Position numbers and translations under genes: made by a program
The notes under the pieces: generated by a model
What the model saw: only the letters and a program-made list of their open reading frames with translations
Told to the model about the DNA's origin: nothing
The model's database searches: none
Part shown: one piece after another, positions 11,925 through 45,673 of the stretch
Numbering within the stretch: position 1 is the first letter of the stretch
How the letters are laid out: each line of letters starts with the position of its first letter
Source of the DNA: a virus
Lineage: Duplodnaviria > Heunggongvirae > Uroviricota > Caudoviricetes
Length of the DNA: 64,000 bases
Virus record (IMG/VR): IMGVR_UViG_3300034279_001376
Coordinates: 44,776-108,775 of that record
Strand: one strand, 5' to 3'

Positions 11925-14900
11925 TTATTTTCTTTTCTTAAAAGGAGAACCCATTTTCATTACTACTTTTTGCTCTCTTTTTACTCCGTTTTCTCTTACT
12001 TGTCTTTGCTCTTTTACTACTAGATTTCGATTGGTGTTTGATCTGGCTGCAATTAAGGCAAATGTAAATGCAACTAATCGGTCTGTGTTTAACTTAGGGG
12101 TGTATTTGAGCATCTCCTCTAGGAGCATAACATCTCTTAGTCTTGTAACTCCATACACGGGAGTTTTTTCCCCGTCTTTCATTATGTTAAGGATAACTTC
12201 ATCAACATAAGCAACTGCAAAATCTAAAGCCTTTTTTTTAAATTCTCCCTCCATCCTAATTCCTATTTCGTTTACTATGGTAGAATTGGGCATCCATTCG
12301 TTTAGAAGGTATATTTCTTTTCTTTTCATAAACATGTGCCCTAAGTCTTTTCCTATGGCCCATTCGTGAAAACCTGTTACGTTTGATTCTACTGCTATTC
12401 GAGCATTGTAATATTTGCAAAGGTTCATGCACGTTTCGTAAGTTTCTTCCCAAGTTGGATACCTACCTGTGTATCTGGCCACTGGAAAATCACTTACCAT
12501 TTGCCCATTAGCATTTACGTGAGCAGCCTTAAATATAACCACTGACATCAAAGACTTAGAAGTAGTGGTGTTGGTTTGTCTGATAGGGTCAATTCCTGCG
12601 TAATATAAACCCCAAGGTGGATTATCTATTGGTAGTTCATCTACTTCTACTACTCCTCTATTATCCTTAGTGGGGTCAACCTTTAGAGTTGAGATAGGTT
12701 TGTTGTACGAGATTTTGTGGGTGATTTTACTGTCAGTAACTTCCAGTTCTACTGTAAGAGGTTTATAGGTTTGACGAAGTAAAGTCTGGTGTTCTTTTAT
12801 GATTCGAGTGGGGAAAATATTATCCTCCCGGATAGCAAAAGCATCTTGAAGATTAAAAGGATGCTGAGATTTCCAAAGAATGTAATTGTCTTTTTCTCTC
12901 CTTTTTTCGTCTTCTAAGTTAAGATAGTACTTGGCTAATTCTATGTCTGAATTTCCATCCTTATCGTAACACTTAATCTGTTTACCATCAACACTTGCTA
13001 TATAATTCCAAAAGTCTGGGAAAAAGAAACAAATCTCTTCATCTGATTCTACCTCTGAGAATATATCTTTGATCCCTAAGAACCCATAACCAGAAGGATT
13101 GAAAGCAATGTTTTCTAATGGCCCACAATCTTTTAATTCACCCACGGCTCCTGATACTGTAATGTGCCCAGTTTTAACACCTCCCATTTTTGTGGCTGCT
13201 TCTGCAAACTCCAACACTTTGTCTAGGTTTGGAGCAATGCCTGCTTCTTCGTGAAAAAGATCAGTTATGTGACCACCTACTGCTTTTGCAGGGTTCTTTT
13301 TAGTGGTGGCTGCCACTAAACGAGATTTTAATCCTACCCATTTTTTCTTTGTGTTAACTGTACCTTCAATTACACTTCTTTTCTGTTCCCATTCTAGTCC
13401 TGCATCTGGTTCAAATGATCTGTACCAAGGAGTATGCTCATTTAGAAAGTTACGGTAGTTAACAGCAAATTTCCAAGAACCATTAGTGTTTACAAAATCT
13501 TCTTCATATCCTATGACTTTACAAACACTCTGCTTAACAAACCATAGTTTTCTCATTAACTTTGACATTAGTTTCAGTGTGTTATGAGTAAGTACATAGT
13601 CTTTAGTAATGTAAGTATGGCTAGGATGGTCAACTTCAATACAAGTGGACTCTTCTTTTCCAAGTTTTACTACATTAATAATACTGTTTTTTGTACGTCT
13701 TTCTCTGTCTAGTATTTGTCTGTATTTCTTACGCCTTAATCTAAACAACCTTATTTTATTTCCAATACGTACCCTCCAAAATATGTGGTCAGTTTCTTTT
13801 GCTGGTGGAAATTCACAACTATGAACTGGAATCCCCAAAGACCTGCATAATTCTACCACATCTGCTTGAAGTCTTTCGGATGTAGTCGTAAGTTGAATAT
13901 CATAACCTTGTTCAGAAATATACCCGTCTGTATCCATAAGCCCCTGTAATAAGGCTATCCGGTTTTCTACACTAGATTTTAAATAAACCTCTGGAATGAA
14001 TTTGTTGTAGCAAGTCGTACCTGTTAAACCTAACTCCTTTAGTTCTCTTAACAAAGGATTTACACCATATTGAGCGTTTACATATTTAGAATCTAAAGAT
14101 GTAAATCTTTTTGCATACATAATAGTGGCCCGGTAATGATTTTCTGCTTGTTCTCTTTCACCTGTATGGTAATCTTCTCCAAGGTCTTCAAGGACTAAAT
14201 CAAATACTTCTTGGTCTGCTGAGGTCAGCCTACATTGAGATTTGGTGAAAGAACCATCACCTAGTAAAGCACCCAAAGCATACGCAGGGATTGGCACAGT
14301 ATTCTCAGGATAAATAATGGGATCAATTTCCTCCACTCCATACCTATAACCTTTATACTCTTTTTTCTCCCCACTTTTTAAAGTTGCTGTTGCTTTATAA
14401 GTTATGCCTTTTTCTAACATTTGCTTCAAAGACAAAACTTTTAAAGTATTCCTTTCTCGCACCTCCCAGAGATGATTAATACCACATCTTACTTTTCTTT
14501 TGTCCAAAAATTCTATTTCGTAAACATCTTTTACTCCTTGTGGATAAACACCTATTACATTGGTTAACTTGCCATCTTTAGAATAAACTTTGTCTCCTAC
14601 TTTTAAATCTCCAATAGGTCTAAAACCATGTTCTGTGAGTACAGGTTCTGAATTAGGTTGTTCAAAGCCTTTCTGGCGGGCTTTGCAGACAGCAGAGTTT
14701 AGATCAGATAATCTAGCAATTTCGTCATACAAATAAAAATGGTAATCTCCATCCCATAATTCTGCAAAATCCTCCCTACCTTTTAATTTATCTACAATAG
14801 GAGTGTAGTTAAGATACCAATAAAAATCTCCGGGTAAATAAAACTCGTTAATGATTACACCTTGACCTATTTTTTTCTTCTCAAAAGCAAAATGTTCTTT

Positions 14901-15113
14901 GTATTGTTCTGAGTCTTCCGAGAAGTCACAATACCTTCCTGTCGTTTGGAATTTAGTGGCAGGTTCAACCCATAGATAAGTGTCATACAAACCATATTTA
15001 CCCGGTTCTTTGAACTGAGATTTTACGTATGCAAGAAACTCCTTGTCATTTTCGTAAATAGTGTATGACCAAACTCCATTTTTAAGAGTAGGTATTCGCT
15101 TTGTTGTAAACAT
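11925..15113 (-). CDS. terL: terminase large subunit (T4 gp17-like) interrupted by an intein
   Basis: 1062 aa. N-terminal ATPase region with ...CKARQKG P-loop remnant. C-terminal nuclease domain with a YAGIDPIRQ RNaseH-like acidic motif. The internal ~360 aa has hallmarks of a homing-endonuclease intein (see intein feature). Confidence 0.8.
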   Translation of the reverse strand: MFTTKRIPTLKNGVWSYTIYENDKEFLAYVKSQFKEPGKYGLYDTYLWVEPATKFQTTGRYCDFSEDSEQYKEHFAFEKKKIGQGVIINEFYLPGDFYWYLNYTPIVDKLKGREDFAELWDGDYHFYLYDEIARLSDLNSAVCKARQKGFEQPNSEPVLTEHGFRPIGDLKVGDKVYSKDGKLTNVIGVYPQGVKDVYEIEFLDKRKVRCGINHLWEVRERNTLKVLSLKQMLEKGITYKATATLKSGEKKEYKGYRYGVEEIDPIIYPENTVPIPAYALGALLGDGSFTKSQCRLTSADQEVFDLVLEDLGEDYHTGEREQAENHYRATIMYAKRFTSLDSKYVNAQYGVNPLLRELKELGLTGTTCYNKFIPEVYLKSSVENRIALLQGLMDTDGYISEQGYDIQLTTTSERLQADVVELCRSLGIPVHSCEFPPAKETDHIFWRVRIGNKIRLFRLRRKKYRQILDRERRTKNSIINVVKLGKEESTCIEVDHPSHTYITKDYVLTHNTLKLMSKLMRKLWFVKQSVCKVIGYEEDFVNTNGSWKFAVNYRNFLNEHTPWYRSFEPDAGLEWEQKRSVIEGTVNTKKKWVGLKSRLVAATTKKNPAKAVGGHITDLFHEEAGIAPNLDKVLEFAEAATKMGGVKTGHITVSGAVGELKDCGPLENIAFNPSGYGFLGIKDIFSEVESDEEICFFFPDFWNYIASVDGKQIKCYDKDGNSDIELAKYYLNLEDEKRREKDNYILWKSQHPFNLQDAFAIREDNIFPTRIIKEHQTLLRQTYKPLTVELEVTDSKITHKISYNKPISTLKVDPTKDNRGVVEVDELPIDNPPWGLYYAGIDPIRQTNTTTSKSLMSVVIFKAAHVNANGQMVSDFPVARYTGRYPTWEETYETCMNLCKYYNARIAVESNVTGFHEWAIGKDLGHMFMKRKEIYLLNEWMPNSTIVNEIGIRMEGEFKKKALDFAVAYVDEVILNIMKDGEKTPVYGVTRLRDVMLLEEMLKYTPKLNTDRLVAFTFALIAARSNTNRNLVVKEQRQVRENGVKREQKVVMKMGSPFKKRK
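13581..14651 (-). mobile_element. intein with LAGLIDADG homing endonuclease inside the terminase ATPase domain (approximate boundaries)
   Basis: Hint-like N-block (EPVLTEHGFRPIGDLKVGDKVYSKDG). Two LAGLIDADG motifs (LGALLGDGSF and LQGLMDTDGYI). C-terminal block ...YVLTHN followed by Thr (+1 extein residue). The N-terminal boundary is uncertain; Ser155 is a candidate first residue. Confidence 0.6.
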
Positions 15114-27829: not shown

Positions 27830-28712
27830 TTTAAGCAATATCTTTACTAAGCCCTCATTATTCCAGAGCCTCTGGTTAACAGTAATGAAACATGGCAATG
27901 CCAGTAAAGTAAAACCTTAAAGTATATCAAAAGTAATACAAAACTCATAGGATAGTTGCGAGATGTAGATGCTGCTTCTCAGGGAGTAGTTGAGTCAACC
28001 TTGGAATAGCAACAGTGAAGTATTATTTGTTTATAGATAGGCTTGATAACCTATTTTTAAAATTCAAACTAAAATTAAAAATAAGCATGTGGGGCAACAA
28101 GACACTATAAATTGGTTATCGGAAAAAGATGTGATACACATTCCCGCCAATGAATATTATTCTCCTAGTAGTAAAGGTTTAGCCTTTATGAAGCCAGAGT
28201 AGTTTAGTGTTTTTATTGTGCAGACTTGAACAGCGATGGTTAACCCATCTAATCTACATGTGGTAGTGTAGTAGTTCCTGTATTAAGTACCTATGTTAAA
28301 CAACCGTTATTACTTGCGCAGGAACTTGAAACAAACTAACAAGGCGGAGTAATTGTAATAGGTTTGGGCTTTTATTGAATGAAATTACTGACCTGCAAAT
28401 GTAGGTAAGAGTAAGGTAAAGCCTTTAGGGAAGAGATTAATACAGAAAAATCATGCAGTGGTACGGCCTTAATCCGTGCAAATCCAAATCTGTACAGAAC
28501 GGATTCATAACCAAATAGTGAATAGGTTATCCCGGCTGTGGGTAAAACAGTAGTCCTTAAAATGGGGGAAGATAACAAGTCATACTTACAAGCCTAGGTA
28601 ATTGTATTTATGGCTAATACGTGGTAGTATGTATGTTATAAACTAAATTAAATAGAGTACAAAATTAGTACTTAAATAGATTTAGTACAGGTTCGATTCC
28701 TGCTTCCTCCGC
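27830..28712 (+). ncRNA. long ORF-free, GC-richer region; candidate large structured ncRNA and/or degenerate tRNA cluster
   Basis: About 900 bp with no plausible ORF; the only table ORF, 28372-28578 (-), looks spurious. Many local inverted repeats (for example gttcctg...caggaac at 28274-28325). Ends in a tRNA-like T-arm GGTTCGATTCC (28690-28700) plus an acceptor-like 3' strand. Confidence 0.3.
28687..28711 (+). other. tRNA-like 3' element: T-stem/loop (acagg-TTCGATT-cctgc) plus 7-nt acceptor-like strand
   Basis: Canonical T-loop TTCGATT with a 4-5 bp stem. No convincing full cloverleaf could be assembled by eye. A distal complement gcggag at 28345-28350 could pair with ctccgc at 28706-28711. 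Confidence 0.3.
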
Positions 28713-28726
28713 TAAACTTTAAAAAC

Positions 28727-29648: not shown

Positions 29649-30437
29649 ATGGTAAAAGAAATCAAAAAGATAGTTACCCATGATGGGGTGTTTCACGCAG
29701 ATGAAGTAGTAGCAGTAGCACTACTTAGATTACAAGGCTGGGATTGTCCAGTTATCAGGACTAGAGACAAGCAAATTGTTTCTGAGGCTTTGCTTGACCC
29801 AGAAATCATGGTGCTAGATCAAGGAGGGGAATATAATATCTCTATGTTAAACCTTGACCACCATCAAGACATGAACTTACAAAGTGCAGCAGGTTTAGTT
29901 TGGAGTAATTTTAACGCTTATATTCTTTCTGATTTAGCCAAAGGCTTTTTTCAGGAGTTTATAAACGGTATTGATAAATGGGACACAAATCGGGATGGTT
30001 GCCACGGTGAGTGGAAACAGGAGTTCAGAAATTTCTCACATCTTATAGCGGGATTTAATAGGGATCCTTTCGATAGTGTTCGTCAAGATACACAATTTGA
30101 AAGGGCAGTTCAATTTGCTATGGCTGTTATTAGGAACGAAAAAGAATCTGCTCTTGAAAAAGCCAAAGCAGAAAAAGAGTATTCCGAACACACAGTAATA
30201 AATGGAATAGCATTGTTTCCTAAGTTCTCCCCTATTTGGAAAGAAAAAGGGGAATATGAATTTGCAGTCATGCCTCATCCTAGCGGATGGCAAGTAGTGG
30301 CTGCAAAAATTGTAAACAAAGTAGTACCGGAAACTGCAAAAGATTTTGAAGGGTTTATTTTCCGACATAATACTGGGTTTATGGCTACCTTTGACACCTT
30401 AGATTCTATTATGGAGTTTGTTAAAACATTTAAATAA
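29649..30437 (+). CDS. MYG1 / UPF0160-family metal-dependent hydrolase-like protein
   Basis: 262 aa. N-terminal THDGVFHADEVVAVALL matches the UPF0160 (MYG1 exonuclease family) signature T-H-x-G-x-F-H-x-D-E. Downstream His/Asp-rich LDHHQD. Confidence 0.6.
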   Translation: MVKEIKKIVTHDGVFHADEVVAVALLRLQGWDCPVIRTRDKQIVSEALLDPEIMVLDQGGEYNISMLNLDHHQDMNLQSAAGLVWSNFNAYILSDLAKGFFQEFINGIDKWDTNRDGCHGEWKQEFRNFSHLIAGFNRDPFDSVRQDTQFERAVQFAMAVIRNEKESALEKAKAEKEYSEHTVINGIALFPKFSPIWKEKGEYEFAVMPHPSGWQVVAAKIVNKVVPETAKDFEGFIFRHNTGFMATFDTLDSIMEFVKTFK

Positions 30438-30718: not shown

Positions 30719-30951
30719 CTAAAAAGCAAATCATTCTTTTAACTCTTCTTGAACAAGAGGAGTTGTGGGGGGAGCATTTACGCATTTACACAGAAGGTGC
30801 AAAATGTTTTGTTAAAAATTCAGAAAGGGCATTAATAGTATCTGTTTATAATGTACAAGGCGTAGGGCATAAATTAGTGACTAAGTTACAATTGCTTGGG
30901 TTCCAATTTTCAAATAGTGAAGTAGGACACCACAAGTTTAGATTTGATTAA
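30697..30951 (+). CDS. small hypothetical protein
   Basis: The table ORF 30655-30951 overlaps the previous gene by 64 nt. The internal ATG at 30697 (MENTDSV...) is a more likely start. Confidence 0.4.
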   Translation: MENTDSVTKKQIILLTLLEQEELWGEHLRIYTEGAKCFVKNSERALIVSVYNVQGVGHKLVTKLQLLGFQFSNSEVGHHKFRFD

Positions 30952-31146
30952 AACAGAGACGAAGTTTGTCTTATACTTCGGGTATAAGCAAACACCAGTG
31001 AGGTGCAAACACCCGTTTATCAGTTTCTACCCAATAGGTTGTAAGTGAAACTGTACTAGCCCCGTTCATATAGCAGACAATATGCTCCTCTTCTAAGGGA
31101 GTCACAGGGGTGCAAATCCTCTACGGGGTACTAAATTATTAAAATT

Positions 31147-31455
31147 ATGCAAGAAATATTCAGTAAAACATATTTGAACGCCAGAGAGATTTCTACTATT
31201 GTAGATTCAGATTGGCCACAAGACAGGAAAGAAAGATTTTTATGTTCAAATTTACAAGAATATCTTGTGAGTTTGAAAGTAGGACTAGAGCATGTACATG
31301 GGTTGGCTATGCACATTGTAAGCAGGGACCCGAAATCAATTTTGTTCTATAAAGACAGAAAACCAGAAGATTGGATCAGGATAGCCTCTGAGGGATTCAC
31401 AGCAATAAAAGATATTAGTATTCCTGTACTCGGTGCAGAATACTTTAAGAAGTAG
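31147..31455 (+). CDS. hypothetical protein
   Basis: 102 aa ORF with ATG start. Confidence 0.5.
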   Translation: MQEIFSKTYLNAREISTIVDSDWPQDRKERFLCSNLQEYLVSLKVGLEHVHGLAMHIVSRDPKSILFYKDRKPEDWIRIASEGFTAIKDISIPVLGAEYFKK

Positions 31456-31555
31456 ATTTTTTTCATGTTTTGATTTATCTGACCTGTTGGAAAATAGAGT
31501 CAGTTTTAGTAGTCACCAACCATTTATTATATAGATAAATTTAAAAACGTTTTCA

Positions 31556-32470
31556 TTGATTTTTGTATTATTGCTGATTGTTTTTGGGTTGCAGAAACTT
31601 GCAACTTATGCTAAAGGCCCAGTAGTGTTTTTGCCTTATGTGTTATTCTTTATTGTAGTCGCTGTTATTGCAGTTAACTGGCGTAAATTGGCCAATTTCT
31701 TTATTTTTATTCCGTTGTTGTTTACAGCATGTAATTTTATTGCATCAGACAAAATTGGGGTAAGAGTAGAAAATTTTGGGCATGAACCAGCCGACTATGC
31801 CTTAGTCTATGGTAAATTCCCATCAGATTGGTCCGCAAGTTCTTGGAATCTTGAATTTCCGGGACAGTCTTTTGGAGTGCCAGTTGATCCTTTTCAAGTA
31901 TCTACAAAAGATGGCGTTTCATTTACTTGTGACCCATCCGTACTTGTTGCTTTAATTAGGACTAACGAGGCTTGTCAAAAGTTTGCGTTTAAATTTAGTG
32001 CTTATAAGAGCGAAGAAGATTTTCAAAAGGCAATTGCACAGATTATTTTGAAAGAATCTGTGGATGCTATCAGGTACACTGTTGGGTCATTTTCATCAGA
32101 TACTATTCTATTTAATAGAACTGGCTTTGAGACTATGATTCAAACAAAATTAGCAACACGTTTAGACAAGGAGTATGGTATCAGTCTAAGTCAATTTAGT
32201 TTGACATTGGATCCTCCTGCTTCTTTACAACAGGCTATTAATGACAGGTTACTAGCACAAGAGCAAACTAAAAAAACTTTAGCAGCAGTTGAAAACGCAA
32301 AAGCAGAAGTAATTCTAGCACAAATCCAAAAAAAGAAAATGTTGGTTCAAACAGCAGGTTACACTGAGGCTTATCTTAGGAACAAAGCCTTAGATGTTTA
32401 TTGGAGTTTGAGTGCATCACCTAACAAAGTATTTGTTTTGGGAGATCCAAAAAGTTTAATTATTCAATAA
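31556..32470 (+). CDS. SPFH / band-7 (stomatin/prohibitin/HflC-like) domain membrane protein
   Basis: 304 aa with N-terminal TM helices. The core ...IGVRVENFG...PSVLVALIRT...IAQIILKESVDAIRYTVGSFSSDTILFNRTGFETMIQTKLATRLDKEYGISLSQFSLTLDPPASLQQAINDRLLAQEQTKK... is typical of the SPFH fold. The ORF initiates at TTG with no in-frame ATG near the 5' end. Confidence 0.55.
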   Translation: MIFVLLLIVFGLQKLATYAKGPVVFLPYVLFFIVVAVIAVNWRKLANFFIFIPLLFTACNFIASDKIGVRVENFGHEPADYALVYGKFPSDWSASSWNLEFPGQSFGVPVDPFQVSTKDGVSFTCDPSVLVALIRTNEACQKFAFKFSAYKSEEDFQKAIAQIILKESVDAIRYTVGSFSSDTILFNRTGFETMIQTKLATRLDKEYGISLSQFSLTLDPPASLQQAINDRLLAQEQTKKTLAAVENAKAEVILAQIQKKKMLVQTAGYTEAYLRNKALDVYWSLSASPNKVFVLGDPKSLIIQ

Positions 32471-32603
32471 ACAAAAGTTTATTGAATGGAATCAGGTGGT
32501 GGAAAGTTAAACACTAATCAAAAGACTTTGAACTAGAAATAGTTGTAACGCGAGGGCATTGAGCGAGGTAAGGTCTGATGGTAGCAATTTTATGCAGTTG
32601 CTT

Positions 32604-32637
32604 GAGAGTTCGAGACTCTCCCTGATTACGAAATATT
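32604..32637 (+). repeat. module copy 1: T-arm-like hairpin (gagag-TTCGAGA-ctctc) immediately followed by the conserved 15-mer cctgattacgaaata
   Basis: 5-bp stem with a TTCRANY-type loop, then a 15-nt block shared exactly with copy 2. Confidence 0.5.
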
Positions 32638-32719
32638 AGAAAAGATCGGGTAGCAGAATGTAAATGCAGTGGTATGCAAGGTTTACCACGTTAGGTAAAA
32701 GGCAGGAATGCACCAATGT

Positions 32720-32752
32720 CTCTAACACTAAAGGTTCAAGTCCTTTCCTGAT
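32720..32752 (+). repeat. module copy 2: T-arm-like hairpin (aaagg-TTCAAGT-ccttt) followed by cctgattacgaaata
   Basis: Same architecture as copy 1 with a different stem sequence (compensatory) and an identical 3' 15-mer. Confidence 0.5.
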
Positions 32753-32784
32753 TACGAAATAATTGGAAAAACTTGTTAGATTTA

Positions 32785-32814
32785 GACTGTCTTGTTGTAA
32801 AGCAAGGCAGTCTT
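32785..32814 (+). other. 11-bp hairpin agactgtcttg-ttgtaaag-caaggcagtct
   Basis: Stem of 10 Watson-Crick pairs plus one U-G wobble, inside the ORF-free region. Confidence 0.4.
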
Positions 32815-32877
32815 ATACCTAAATAGATTCTATTGAGGTAAAAAGTTTGCTATAAATCAGCAAACTATAAAAGTATG

Positions 32878-32947
32878 AGGGAGTTAGCCTTAAAGTAAAG
32901 GCCAGTATTTGCTATACGGTATGCTGGTTCAAATCCAGTACTCTCTC
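32878..32947 (+). tRNA. tRNA-like element (possible degenerate tRNA, anticodon-loop reading UGC)
   Basis: Acceptor agggagt/actctct (7 bp including one G-U). U8. D-stem gcct/aggc. T-arm gctgg-TTCAAAT-ccagt. The anticodon stem has an A-G mismatch, the variable loop is only 3 nt and position 37 is a pyrimidine, so it is non-canonical. Confidence 0.25.
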
Positions 32948-33017
32948 CCGAAACGGGTTGGTAACCTAGGACTGCTGTAAAGTGGGACTAGGATTTTTAA
33001 CATTTAACATTTAAAAA

Positions 33018-33317
33018 ATGGAAAAACTATCAAAAGATTTTTGGCTTACAGTCCGAAAAGAATACTCTGAATCCAAAGGGCAAGTATTTCTTTGTCATGG
33101 TTCTGAAACTTTTGAAAAAATGTGGGATAATAAAGAGTCCAGATTAAAAGTAAAAGAACTTGAAGAAAAGTTTATGGAGGACAATTCATTCAATTTTAAT
33201 TATAGTACTCTTGAGCACCTTTTATTTTCCAGACATGAAGGAAATGATTATCAACTAAAAACACAATTTATTAATTGGATTATAAAAAACGAATTATATG
33301 AGTTGCAAAAAATGTAA
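33018..33317 (+). CDS. small protein, 'KxFW' family member 2
   Basis: 99 aa with ATG start. MEKLSKDFWLTVRKEYSESKGQVFLCHGSETFEKMW. Confidence 0.55.
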   Translation: MEKLSKDFWLTVRKEYSESKGQVFLCHGSETFEKMWDNKESRLKVKELEEKFMEDNSFNFNYSTLEHLLFSRHEGNDYQLKTQFINWIIKNELYELQKM

Positions 33318-43447: not shown

Positions 43448-45673
43448 ATGATAAAATACATAGGTAAAACAGAAGAAAACTTTGAGCACGCAAGTCCACA
43501 GGAATGTCTGGATTGGTGCTTAAAACAGCAAGTGTTAGTCTTAGACACAGAGACTACAAGAAAGTACCCTAAAGGTACTTATGATGAATCAGTGTACAGG
43601 TCTGGATTGGATCCTAAATTGAGCAATATTATTATGTTGCAAATAGGAAACCAAGAAAGGAAATACATTATTGACGCACGAATAATAGATGTGAGGTTTT
43701 TAAAACCAGTGTTAGAAGGGCCTATACTAAAGATTCTTCATAATGCAAAATTTGATGCCAAGCATCTTTTAGAATTAGATCTTACGCTCTATAATGTATG
43801 GGACACCATGATTATAGAACGGGTCTTACACAACGGATGGAATTATTCTTACTCCTTGGAGGCAACAGCAAAAAGATACGGTTTAATTCAATCTAATATC
43901 TTGCCTGAATTGTTTGATATAGAAGAAGAGGAAGAAGAGGAATTAGATTTTTTAGACGGTAAAGAAGAAAAGGTTTTTGTTGACAAGTCAATAAGAACTC
44001 AATTTGTAGAGTGGGGTGATAAGCCTTTCACAGAGAAGCAGATTTTGTATGGTGCATCTGATTTGGATTTACCACTTAAAATCTACAATCGACAGAAACA
44101 AGGAACAACAGTAAATGGTGAATTGTATCTTCCTCTAAAGGGATTTGCAGTGGAAAACGAAACTGTTTTAGCCTTGGCTCAAGTGGAAAGGGAAGGAATT
44201 AAAGTTGACATAGAAGGATGGTTGGCACTTGAAAAAATAAACCTTGAGAAATATAGGGAGAAAAAGAAAATACTTGACAAGTACATTATCAGTTATTTTC
44301 CGAATTATACGTCAGGAGTTGATCTCTTCTCTAACGAGGAAACATGCGGGATAGATTGGCAGTCTCCGAATCAAGTTATTAAACTATTCAGAGGGCTGGA
44401 TATTTGCCCCAAAGAGAAGTCTAAGCAAACTGGGAAGATGGATTGGACTGTGGGAGCCAAAGCACTGTTTAAACTCCTTACAAACGAGAATAAGGAGAAA
44501 TTCCAAAACTCTGAAACTATTGAGTTTAAGGATAAGAATGATACTCAGGCTTTAATTCTTAATTTCCTAGTCTTCAAGAAGTACCAGATGTTAACTACTA
44601 CATTTGGCTCCAAATATCTTAGGTGGGTTCACCCTATCACTGGAAAAATTCACACTAATTTCCGTCAGTATATGAATACTGGCAGAATGAGCAGTAGTTC
44701 GCCCAATTTACAGAACGTGCCAGCAGGAAAAGAATGGAGAAAACTTTTCATCAGTGAAGAAAATGAAGACATGGTTGCAGTGGACTTTGAGAGTCAGGAA
44801 ATAAGATACCTTTCTGTTTTGGCCAATCTTCAAAACATGAAAGACTTTTTTATTAAAGGTAATGAAATCTTTGGTGCGGATTTCCATGCGTTCAGTGCCA
44901 CAAATATGATGAGAGTTGTAAAGAATGATCCTACTCTTTTAATCACTAAGAAAACTCACCCCAAAGAAAGGACCATAAGCAAAACTTTGACTTTTGGTAT
45001 TAACTATGGAAAAGGTTCTTTTTCAGTGTCTCAGGAACTAGGAATCGAAGAATCAGAAGCCATAAAATTTATAGACGGATTTTTGGATGGTTTTCCCGGC
45101 TTGAGGGAAAACTTTGCCAAGAGAAAAAAAGCAGCAACAGATAACGGATGGATAGAAATAAGCCCTTACACTAAAAAAAGATATTTCTTTCCTGAATTTA
45201 AAGAGATGAAAGACAGTGAGACTTTAGCAAGGTCTTATTATACGGAGGAACACAATGAGAAATCCAAGAAGATTAATGTTGCTCTCAAAGGTAATTTAAC
45301 CAAAGAACAAAAAGCAGATTTATTGGAGCAAAAACAGGCTTTAAAGGATGAATTGTACGCAAAACACCCAGAGTTAGGCCCTTTGTGGAAACGAGTAATG
45401 ACTTTAAAAGGCAAACTAGAGAGAAGGGCATTAAACTTTGGAATACAAGGAGGTTGTTCAGAAATGACCAAAATTGCTTTGTGTCTTATGGTTAGAGCCA
45501 AAATTAGAGTTATATTGATTATTCACGACGAATTTCTTGCAGTATGTAAGGAACCAGAGAGTGAATATGTAGGAACAAAAATCAAAGAATTAATGGTCAG
45601 TGCAGGTGCTCGATACAGTAATGATGTAAAATTTACTGGTGATGCTGCTACTGGTAAATACTGGATACACTAA
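43448..45673 (+). CDS. polA: family A DNA polymerase (Pol I-like) with 3'-5' exonuclease domain
   Basis: Exo I VLVLDTETT, Exo II LHNAKFDAKHL, Exo III YGASDLD. Pol motif A VAVDFESQEIRYL, motif B RTISKTLTFGINYG, motif C IIHDEFL. Confidence 0.9.
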   Translation: MIKYIGKTEENFEHASPQECLDWCLKQQVLVLDTETTRKYPKGTYDESVYRSGLDPKLSNIIMLQIGNQERKYIIDARIIDVRFLKPVLEGPILKILHNAKFDAKHLLELDLTLYNVWDTMIIERVLHNGWNYSYSLEATAKRYGLIQSNILPELFDIEEEEEEELDFLDGKEEKVFVDKSIRTQFVEWGDKPFTEKQILYGASDLDLPLKIYNRQKQGTTVNGELYLPLKGFAVENETVLALAQVEREGIKVDIEGWLALEKINLEKYREKKKILDKYIISYFPNYTSGVDLFSNEETCGIDWQSPNQVIKLFRGLDICPKEKSKQTGKMDWTVGAKALFKLLTNENKEKFQNSETIEFKDKNDTQALILNFLVFKKYQMLTTTFGSKYLRWVHPITGKIHTNFRQYMNTGRMSSSSPNLQNVPAGKEWRKLFISEENEDMVAVDFESQEIRYLSVLANLQNMKDFFIKGNEIFGADFHAFSATNMMRVVKNDPTLLITKKTHPKERTISKTLTFGINYGKGSFSVSQELGIEESEAIKFIDGFLDGFPGLRENFAKRKKAATDNGWIEISPYTKKRYFFPEFKEMKDSETLARSYYTEEHNEKSKKINVALKGNLTKEQKADLLEQKQALKDELYAKHPELGPLWKRVMTLKGKLERRALNFGIQGGCSEMTKIALCLMVRAKIRVILIIHDEFLAVCKEPESEYVGTKIKELMVSAGARYSNDVKFTGDAATGKYWIH

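Follow-up and report, generated by a model that had tools for sequence, protein, structure and literature searches.

The stretch of DNA analysed here (the window) comprises 64,000 nucleotides (nt) of a Caudoviricetes virus, positions 44,776 to 108,775 of IMG/VR record IMGVR_UViG_3300034279_001376. It is a segment of a phage genome carrying a family A DNA polymerase, a LAGLIDADG/intein-like large open reading frame (ORF) and many small ORFs. Downstream of an SPFH/Band-7 gene, whose ORF ends at 32470, a set of RNA elements is located in a gap (32471-33017) that is devoid of ORFs of 60 or more amino acids, as stated in the first-pass annotation. That annotation described two modules in the gap, each formed by a hairpin similar to the T-arm of a transfer RNA (tRNA) followed by an identical 15-mer, and took them for tRNA 3′ halves or tRNA-like structures. 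The second option was correct and the first was not, since both modules have 5′ acceptor strands and D-arms: they are the 3′ ends of two complete, tandem, oversized tRNA-shaped genes without anticodon arm, named here win1 and win2. The elements concerned, with their matches to the covariance model R2 introduced below, are:

32490..32628, + strand: win1, 139 nt; full-length R2 match, 39.6 bits, E = 5e-8
32644..32754, + strand: win2, 111 nt; full-length R2 match, 50.3 bits, E = 8e-11
32621..32635, + strand: 15-mer copy 1, acceptor 3′ strand CCUGAUU, A73, C74 and tail GAAAUA; exact match
32747..32761, + strand: 15-mer copy 2, with the same CCUGAUU, A73, C74 and tail GAAAUA; exact match

The identity of the two 15-mers, CCTGATTACGAAATA, was confirmed. 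The sequence is absent from the rest of the window even when up to 2 mismatches are allowed, while 0.16 matches are expected by chance and 2 of 100 shuffles reach two matches. Its first 7 nt are the acceptor 3′ strand, after which come A73, C74 and an A-rich tail of 6 nt, and the presence of the same tail in both genes probably reflects paralogy or a shared processing context. A 5-bp-stem hairpin with a loop fitting TTCRANN directly precedes each copy, as claimed: gagag-TTCGAGA-ctctc at 32604-32620 and aaagg-TTCAAGT-ccttt at 32730-32746, the latter having been placed 10 nt too early, at 32720. The T-stems differ at 3 of their 5 pairs and both are fully paired, in agreement with the compensatory change suspected from the first inspection. 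A 5′ acceptor partner, said to be missing, exists for both modules, since AATCAGG (32490-32496) and GATCGGG (32644-32650) pair 7/7 with CCTGATT; these strands lie 103–131 nt upstream of the modules, beyond normal tRNA distance. In a sense the 15-mer is absent from related genomes, an outcome that the first-pass annotation had regarded as adverse: the IMG/VR matches outside identical copies of this phage were 73 single hits in unrelated sequence with no T-arm upstream, and were discarded as chance. A metagenome scan in which the first 13 of the 15 bases were required gave identical copies of this phage and two other members of the family described below.

In win1, the acceptor AAUCAGG/CCUGAUU is accompanied by U8, the D-arm GUGG-AAAGUUA-ACAC and A73, and the centre contains a long branched arm at the anticodon-arm position and then a 7-bp hairpin, AGCAAUU-UUAUGC-AGUUGCU, located before the T-arm. 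In win2, the acceptor GAUCGGG/CCUGAUU includes two G-U pairs and the D-arm is GCAG-AAUGUAA-AUGC; the first arm, GUGGUA-UGCAAGGUU-UACCAC, has 6 bp and a 9-nt loop and spans 32669-32689 (the hairpin reported at 32659-32679, displaced by 10 nt), and a second arm of 37 nt, GUUAG...CUAAC, leads to the T-arm and A73. Both genes have a canonical 7-bp acceptor, a D-arm and a T-arm, and both carry U8, A14, A15, U48, A73, C74 and a canonical T-loop; their acceptor stems close in unconstrained minimum-energy folds as well as in scaffold-constrained folds. At the canonical position after nucleotide 26, 2 of 5 anticodon-stem pairs can form in win1 and 3 of 5 in win2, short of the 5-bp/7-nt arm of a tRNA, and the lengths of 139 and 111 nt exceed the canonical tRNA length of about 70-95 nt. 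ARAGORN calls neither gene. No Rfam family matches win1 at E ≤ 10, and win2 is matched by the Rfam tRNA model with 36.6 bits (cut-off 29), with the anticodon stem flagged as unpaired and a large insertion.

Sequence comparison places win1 and win2 in what appears to be a large phage-borne family of anticodon-less RNAs of leucine tRNA (tRNA-Leu) type. Three independent pattern scans yielded more than 130 distinct relatives, located on viral contigs or on contigs of metagenome-assembled genomes (MAGs). A pattern of the 3′ side (T-loop, any stem, then CCTGATTACG) matched unrelated viral contigs in which A[AG]TCAGG and then TGGC(A/G)GAA lie upstream, the former paired to the 3′ end, the total length being 85-125 nt, and a pattern of the 5′ side, ARTCAGGTGGCAGAA, provided about 25 additional members. 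Another pattern fixed only the D-arm and the T-loop, separated by an oversized gap, and left the acceptor unconstrained. It yielded at least 97 unique sequences; among the matches listed, AGTCAGG opens 63 of 97, and a single compensated step separates most of the remainder from it; 7/7 acceptor pairs form in 90 of 97, and A73 is present in 85 of 97. Matches to the consensus 3′ end were confined to 18 MAG contigs, 17 of which bear the unforced 5′ half AGTCAGG-TG-GCGGAATGGTAGACGC, whereas in the 18th, L240, the gene is interrupted by the contig end. ARAGORN, run on 8 of these 18 loci, called no family member. Rfam searches around family members detected nothing except tRNAs, the members themselves scoring 35-43 bits as 'tRNA'. 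Several phages carry more than one copy (window 2, L256 3, L297 2, L370 2), and the copies of several contigs differ in their centre. L256 (MAG contig DOMR01000029.1, minus strand) has three members of 93, 103 and 149 nt with unrelated centres within about 1.6 kb, whose 3′ ends (1411-1432, 2092-2113 and 2950-2971) adjoin tRNA-Gln, tRNA-Arg and tRNA-Leu.

Isolate genomes gave no relative, and searches among cultured phages and by synteny were likewise negative. No cultured phage in INPHARED shows both halves; the family-member query matched only 3′ ends of ordinary tRNAs, and the 'tRNA-Gln' of an Enterococcus phage retrieved in this way is a canonical tRNA. A blastn comparison of the region with cultured phages gave no match, and synteny through the SPFH and MYG1-like neighbour proteins revealed no IMG/VR relatives. 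SPFH homologues taken from the protein database (48-69% identity) led to contigs with other tRNAs or tRNA-like genes after SPFH and with no orthologue of win1 or win2. No paper describing these RNAs came up in literature searches on the signature and on similar phage RNAs, and no Rfam family corresponds to them, which is not proof of novelty.

The family scaffold consists of the acceptor AGUCAGG/CCUGACU or compensated variants of it, the D-arm GCGGAAUGGUAGACGC, a canonical T-arm, and U8, A14, A15, U48 and A73. The acceptor of win1 is one compensated pair away from this consensus and identical to those of L098, L117 and L379, and the D-arm of win2 is identical to that of L168. In an alignment of 52 members, 99.1% of the cells of the scaffold are paired and 12 of the 15 pairs show compensatory changes; none of 500 shuffles reached as high a value, and slid registers gave about 35%. 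Covariance model R2, built from 41 full-length members with the window sequences excluded, matches win1 and win2 over their full length, with the ends exactly as inferred. It replaced a first model, R1, made from trimmed centres, which returned fragments only, the long inserts not being bridged. One alignment chosen by R1 (19.9 bits) involves AGGCAGG in the win2 centre (32700-32706), a near copy of the family 5′ acceptor consensus that could pair 6/7 with CCUGAUU to produce a D-arm-less mini-form.

These data bear on the idea that win1 and win2 are decaying tRNA pseudogenes, or fragments of phage attachment site (attP) type left by integration or duplication, lacking any RNA function. The failure of default tRNA finders to detect them, their tandem layout, suggestive of duplication, and the identical 15-mer, which could be a recombination core, are in its favour. 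Decay, however, would strike all parts equally, whereas the scaffold helices are kept by compensation across more than 100 divergent members, the 5′ halves of win1 and win2 are intact, and the T-stems pair perfectly in spite of differing at 3 of 5 pairs. The attP-like origin that the first-pass annotation had raised is not supported: the genome scans gave no host counterpart, the two-sided family signature being absent from 185,579 species genomes (one genome per species) and the 3′ consensus being confined to the 18 MAG contigs, 17 of them with the full gene. We consider this explanation extremely unlikely.

The anticodon arm is missing throughout the family: it occurs at its canonical position in 2 of 135 members. 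A 5-bp/7-nt hairpin with U33 and R37 was found anywhere in the centre of 34 of 135 members, a frequency that shuffled sequences match (mean 33.5), while the identical code, used as positive control, found it in 32 of 36 real tRNA-Leu genes of the same loci. The enrichment of Leu-anticodon remnants in the family centres was not significant. It might still be argued that the genes are interrupted tRNA-Leu genes, in which the insert is an intron or intervening sequence whose removal gives a decoding tRNA-Leu. At the equivalent locus of the relative L085 (about 1885-2455; SPFH 62% identical), right after the SPFH gene, there is indeed a tRNA with a Leu-type D-arm split by an insert of ~500 nt, which gives a partial match to the Rfam group I intron, at 34.8 bits (below the cut-off of 50). 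Likewise, the family D-arm is identical to that of bacterial tRNA-Leu, a CAA is located within the loop of the first arm of win2, and ARAGORN proposes intron-containing tRNAs when introns are allowed. Its isotype calls, however, do not agree among themselves (Tyr, SeC, Leu, Phe, Cys and Pro, among others), and some centres, of 25-29 nt, are too short to accommodate an anticodon arm, a class II variable arm and an intron. Moreover, the search for Intron_gpI was negative both in 30800-33300 (E ≤ 10) and in the whole window (E ≤ 0.1), no other ribozyme signature was detected, and both anticodon-arm hairpins and Leu-anticodon remnants stay at shuffle level. Interrupted genes are thus an improbable explanation.

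The centres that replace the anticodon arm are hypervariable, with 25-100 nt and one to three arms (60-90 nt in the window inserts). A k-mer search for a common centre motif gave nothing above shuffles, and on average the centres are weakly structured (mean z score against shuffles, z = -0.7). The junction plan is nevertheless kept, since in 70 of 126 members the first arm begins no more than 2 nt from position 27, and the last centre arm usually ends 0-2 nt ahead of the T-stem. Among 130 centres, 73 are singletons and the others group into subfamilies of 5, 5, 5, 4, 3 ... members, which show compensatory pairs and invariant loops (weaker in one comparison); one centre class was found on two different acceptor stems. 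The conserved subfamilies, compensatory changes and invariant loops argue for selection on the centre and against its being filler. In L117 and L248 the centre holds a second, internal T-arm-like hairpin, ACGG-UUCGAAU-CCGU, that is, a nested tRNA-like module.

The opposite view of the centre, as tolerated filler, is taken if the RNAs are decoys or sponges whose acceptor/T-arm/elbow half soaks up a host factor acting on that half, such as defence toxins by which tRNA 3′ ends or acceptor stems are modified or cleaved, or the leucyl-tRNA synthetase (LeuRS). We know of no defence system that targets this tRNA-Leu-like chassis. Immunity directed at acceptor ends does exist, as reported for Cas12a3, which cleaves tRNA tails, and for MenT toxins. 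Decoys would also be in keeping with the pattern of conservation, which covers only the acceptor, D and T segments and leaves the sequence, length and shape of the centre unconstrained, with the lack of a co-located partner protein and with the several copies in some phages. The subfamilies with their compensatory changes and invariant loops, and the related centre on two acceptor stems, are difficult to reconcile with filler, and a decoy role is in our opinion unlikely.

The flanks of the genes are of tRNA type. C74 follows A73 in 96% of the family members and, once the register is corrected, also in 96% of the genuine tRNAs of the same loci; an A-rich stretch follows, the trailers from C74 on reading CAA, CTA, CCA or CGA. 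The 303 canonical tRNAs in the family loci have C74 in 96% of cases, a full CCA being rare and the trailers following the order CAA > CTA > CCA. The rarity of a full CCA in these phage tRNA genes implies dependence on 3′ repair or a CCA-adding enzyme. Of 135 members, 46 are located within 300 nt of a canonical tRNA. No neighbouring protein is conserved, the largest cluster, terminase-like, being present in 11 of 132 loci; the lack of a dedicated neighbour protein would be expected if the RNAs depended on the tRNA enzymes of the host. A conserved covarying hairpin, absent from the window copies, lies just upstream of about 15 of 136 members (e.g. L269, L386, L379, L089 and L264). This element consists of TGAC(R)G (also TGACRG), a 4-5-bp stem with the loop GGAAAGAC and then CAAnAT, ends 5-6 nt before the tRNA-like 5′ end and has no Rfam match.

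Likeness to tRNA-Leu, a class II tRNA, extends to the family consensus D-arm UGGCGGAAUGGUAGACGC, which is of tRNA-Leu type (win1 and win2 carry diverged versions), and to A73, A15-U48, the T-loop and the C74 trailer. The family differs from tRNA-Leu in lacking the anticodon arm, in its centre of variable architecture and in its acceptor, AGUCAGG instead of the GCC...-type of the canonical phage tRNA-Leu of the same loci. In Escherichia coli tRNA-Leu the anticodon and the long variable arm are not identity elements and variants without both are still charged, identity being based on A73, A15-U48, G18G19 and D/T contacts (PMC9976931). Across the family the set A73, A14, A15-U48 and T-loop contacts is 89-100% conserved and the G18G19 doublet is present in 78-100%, depending on the subset. 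Leucylation is possible, the requirements of bacterial LeuRS being limited to A73 and the corner formed by the D and T loops.

Conservation of this kind could also mean that the RNAs are aminoacylated carriers, in which the Leu-charged chassis donates leucine to an aminoacyl-tRNA-dependent transferase, or acts as a mini transfer-messenger RNA (tmRNA), while the centre directs the partner. The family keeps the full LeuRS identity set and nothing that LeuRS does not need, and the acceptor sequence is unusually conserved (the 63 of 97 identical starts among the matches listed), as would be expected if the acceptor end were recognised by its sequence. However, genes for a transferase or an SmpB-like protein do not recur in the neighbourhood, ARAGORN finds no tmRNA, G3:U70 is absent, and win1 and win2 lack G18G19, so that carriers seem to us as improbable as interrupted genes.

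The closest known analogue is T4 species 1 RNA (rnaC), an analogue and not a family member. T4 rnaD (species 2, 119 nt) and rnaC (species 1, 139 nt) are adjacent stable RNAs in the tRNA cluster, right after tRNA-Arg, and the window elements occupy an analogous genomic position beside tRNAs. The RNA rnaC, whose fold is very stable (z = -4.6), has the plan and the length of win1: its terminal stem encloses a long arm, then another hairpin and the canonical T-arm CCGGG-UUCGAAU-CCCGG. It differs from the family in that it has no recognisable D-arm, an imperfect acceptor stem and no family acceptor/D-arm signature; the R2 alignment is limited to the 92 nt at its 3′ end (26 bits), and by inspection it shares no sequence with the family. 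No T-arm is evident in rnaD. The role of the tRNA-like stable RNAs of T-even phages has been an open question since the 1970s. The roles of rnaC and rnaD are still described as unknown (PMC9697503; PMC3014915).

A man-made counterpart is the engineered tRNA scaffold, in which a cargo takes the anticodon-arm position and the acceptor, D and T parts remain in place to ensure processing and stability (PMC3753655); the phage family is natural and widespread. Three natural candidates were discarded. A tmRNA is not indicated, since the ARAGORN search was negative, the 3:70 pair is U-A, with no G3:U70, and there is no tag reading frame. Neither tmRNA nor YrlA has an Rfam match at E ≤ 10 in 30800-33300, and a Ro-binding stem is lacking. 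Regarding plant-virus tRNA-like structures, the only match, Tymo_tRNA-like (15.9 bits, cut-off 40, E = 3.5), falls on the tRNA-Arg of the window and not on win1 or win2. In all three, tmRNA, YrlA (a bacterial Y RNA) and the tRNA-like structures of plant viruses, the acceptor/T-arm half of a tRNA is put to another use in an RNA that does not decode; the plant-virus structures are mRNA 3′ ends, whereas win1 and win2 are free-standing genes.

Taking into account the scaffold, the flanks and the missing anticodon arm, we favour, with about as much doubt as conviction, the reading that win1 and win2 are tRNA-processed, stable, non-decoding RNAs that carry a variable payload on a tRNA-Leu (class II) chassis and are possibly leucylated. 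The analysis itself establishes where the genes begin and end, that they belong to the family, the covariation of the scaffold, the lack of an anticodon arm and the tRNA-type flanks; processing, stability, charging and payload function are what we infer here from sequence. In the model, win1 and win2 would be transcribed together with the neighbouring tRNAs, RNase P would cut their 5′ ends, the normal tRNA 3′ pathway would trim them and the CCA-adding enzyme would extend C74 to CCA, giving rise to stable L-shaped RNAs unable to read codons. The chassis retains the features recognised by RNase P, by the 3′ trimming and CCA-adding enzymes and by EF-Tu, and would provide processing, stability and possibly leucylation, the variable insert being the working part. 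Maturation by RNase P is documented for phage RNAs other than tRNAs, an example being the P1/P7 C4 antisense RNA (PMC11143913).

Several results weigh against this reading. R2 gives genuine T4 tRNA-Ser and tRNA-Leu 36-39 bits (the tRNA-Ala of the window scores 20 bits); since real class II tRNAs are also recognised, an R2 score proves a class II scaffold and not family specificity, and the assignment of win1 and win2 to the family is based on their acceptor sequence, their excess length and the lack of an anticodon arm. Members were collected by sequence patterns, so that conservation is overestimated for the segments fixed by the patterns. The D-loops of win1 and win2 have a single G, lacking the G18G19 doublet that is an essential LeuRS element, which makes leucylation of these two RNAs doubtful. 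Their centres are little more stable than shuffles (z = -1.1 and -1.7), and antisense matches between the inserts and the other parts of the window did not exceed shuffle level. Other contigs of this phage are 100% identical across the region; neither these identical-phage contigs nor the metagenome scan provided a diverged win1 or win2 orthologue, so that their own inserts are not open to covariation testing.

A broader proposal, which we put forward tentatively as less probable than the favoured reading itself, is that phages make wide use of the leucine-tRNA chassis as a natural platform for display and expression, where interchangeable, fast-evolving payloads (aptamers, decoys or guides) directed at host or phage targets would replace the anticodon and variable arms and host enzymes would excise, stabilise and perhaps leucylate the product. 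Such a platform would constitute a new class of phage non-coding RNA, would suggest a role for the orphan T4 species 1 RNA, and would mean that phages devised the tRNA-scaffold trick of synthetic biology. If the family is real, hundreds of phage "intergenic" stretches near tRNAs would encode unannotated stable RNAs, which standard finders would miss or mislabel as intron-containing or undetermined-type tRNAs. Its members, modular inserts and covariation would offer a comparative handle on the role of the T-even tRNA-like stable RNAs, and a chassis with the LeuRS identity set raises the possibility of aminoacylated RNAs that never enter the ribosome.

Around win1 and win2 the loose RNA-gene cluster contains the following further features:

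31059..31131, + strand: tRNA-Arg(UCU), called by ARAGORN; Rfam 45.3 bits; upstream member of the cluster
32462..32487, + strand: perfect 11-bp AT-rich hairpin, an inverted repeat with 100% complementarity
32784..32813, + strand: strong 13-bp hairpin between win2 and tRNA-Ala; -22 kcal/mol, z = -4.86, 0 of 200 shuffles as good
32878..32949, + strand: tRNA-Ala(UGC), called by ARAGORN; Rfam tRNA 34.4 bits (cut-off 29); G3:U70 pair

The last of these had been described as a degenerate, non-canonical cloverleaf at 32878-32947, and is a standard tRNA-Ala(tgc) according to ARAGORN and Rfam, with the alanine identity pair G3:U70. The prospect, raised at the outset, that standard tools might explain all the elements was thus realised for this third element; for win2 there is the full tRNA-type match of Rfam, and win1 remains uncalled. 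The tRNA-Ala has some oddities, namely an anticodon loop UUUGCUA (U37), one mismatched anticodon-stem pair and C instead of A as discriminator. The strong hairpin proposed at 32785-32814 was recovered at ~32784-32813 (-22 kcal/mol, z = -4.9); no U-run comes after it, it is not among the calls of the terminator scan, and it is possibly a processing or stability element. The 32462-32487 hairpin spans the SPFH stop codon and ends 2 nt ahead of the 5′ end of win1. The scan for sigma-70 promoters and intrinsic terminators stayed at chance level, Bacteroidota-type promoters being outside the scope of the tool.

Among the protein genes of the window, a homologue of the MYG1-family (DHH-type) exonuclease is encoded at 29649-30437 (+), 2 kb upstream of the RNA cluster, and a DHH/DHHA1 protein is present in the relative L082 too; these proteins may conceivably be linked to the processing of RNA ends. 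An ORF of 1062 amino acids at 11925-15113 (-) has LAGLIDADG/homing-endonuclease and Hint-like matches, which suggests an intein-containing gene.

Relatives of the phage carry other unusual RNAs. In the closest ones, L079 (3315-3496) and L080 (4008-4189), there is a 182-nt oversized tRNA-Leu-like gene with acceptor AAUCUUA/UAAGAUU, D-arm GCCGGAAUUGGUAGUCGG and discriminator C, which R2 scores at 25.7 bits and ARAGORN does not call. The same two contigs have a 61-nt tRNA-like gene (L079 10004-10064, L080 10011-10071; Rfam tRNA 45.6 bits) whose anticodon arm is cut to a 3-bp stub, and which parallels the oversized family in miniature, again without an anticodon. The segments L080 244-306 and L079 4237-4303 provide a match to the Pistol self-cleaving ribozyme, with 69.1 bits (cut-off 34.5), and a Hatchet-like match, with 41.2 bits (below the cut-off of 51). 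In L084 (6995-7066), directly after the SPFH homologue, ARAGORN calls a tRNA whose type it leaves undetermined and whose anticodon has 4 bases (gcta). The window itself contains another oversized tRNA-like element at 28564-28712 (+), within the ORF-free gap 28579-28726, with an 8-bp terminal stem GGGGGAAG/CUUCCUCC, two long arms and the T-arm CAGG-UUCGAUU-CCUG, and without D-arm. Its architecture is like that of T4 rnaC and R2 matches its T-arm only (17.9 bits); its fold, at -46.4 kcal/mol (z = -5.8), was equalled in stability by 0 of 200 shuffles.

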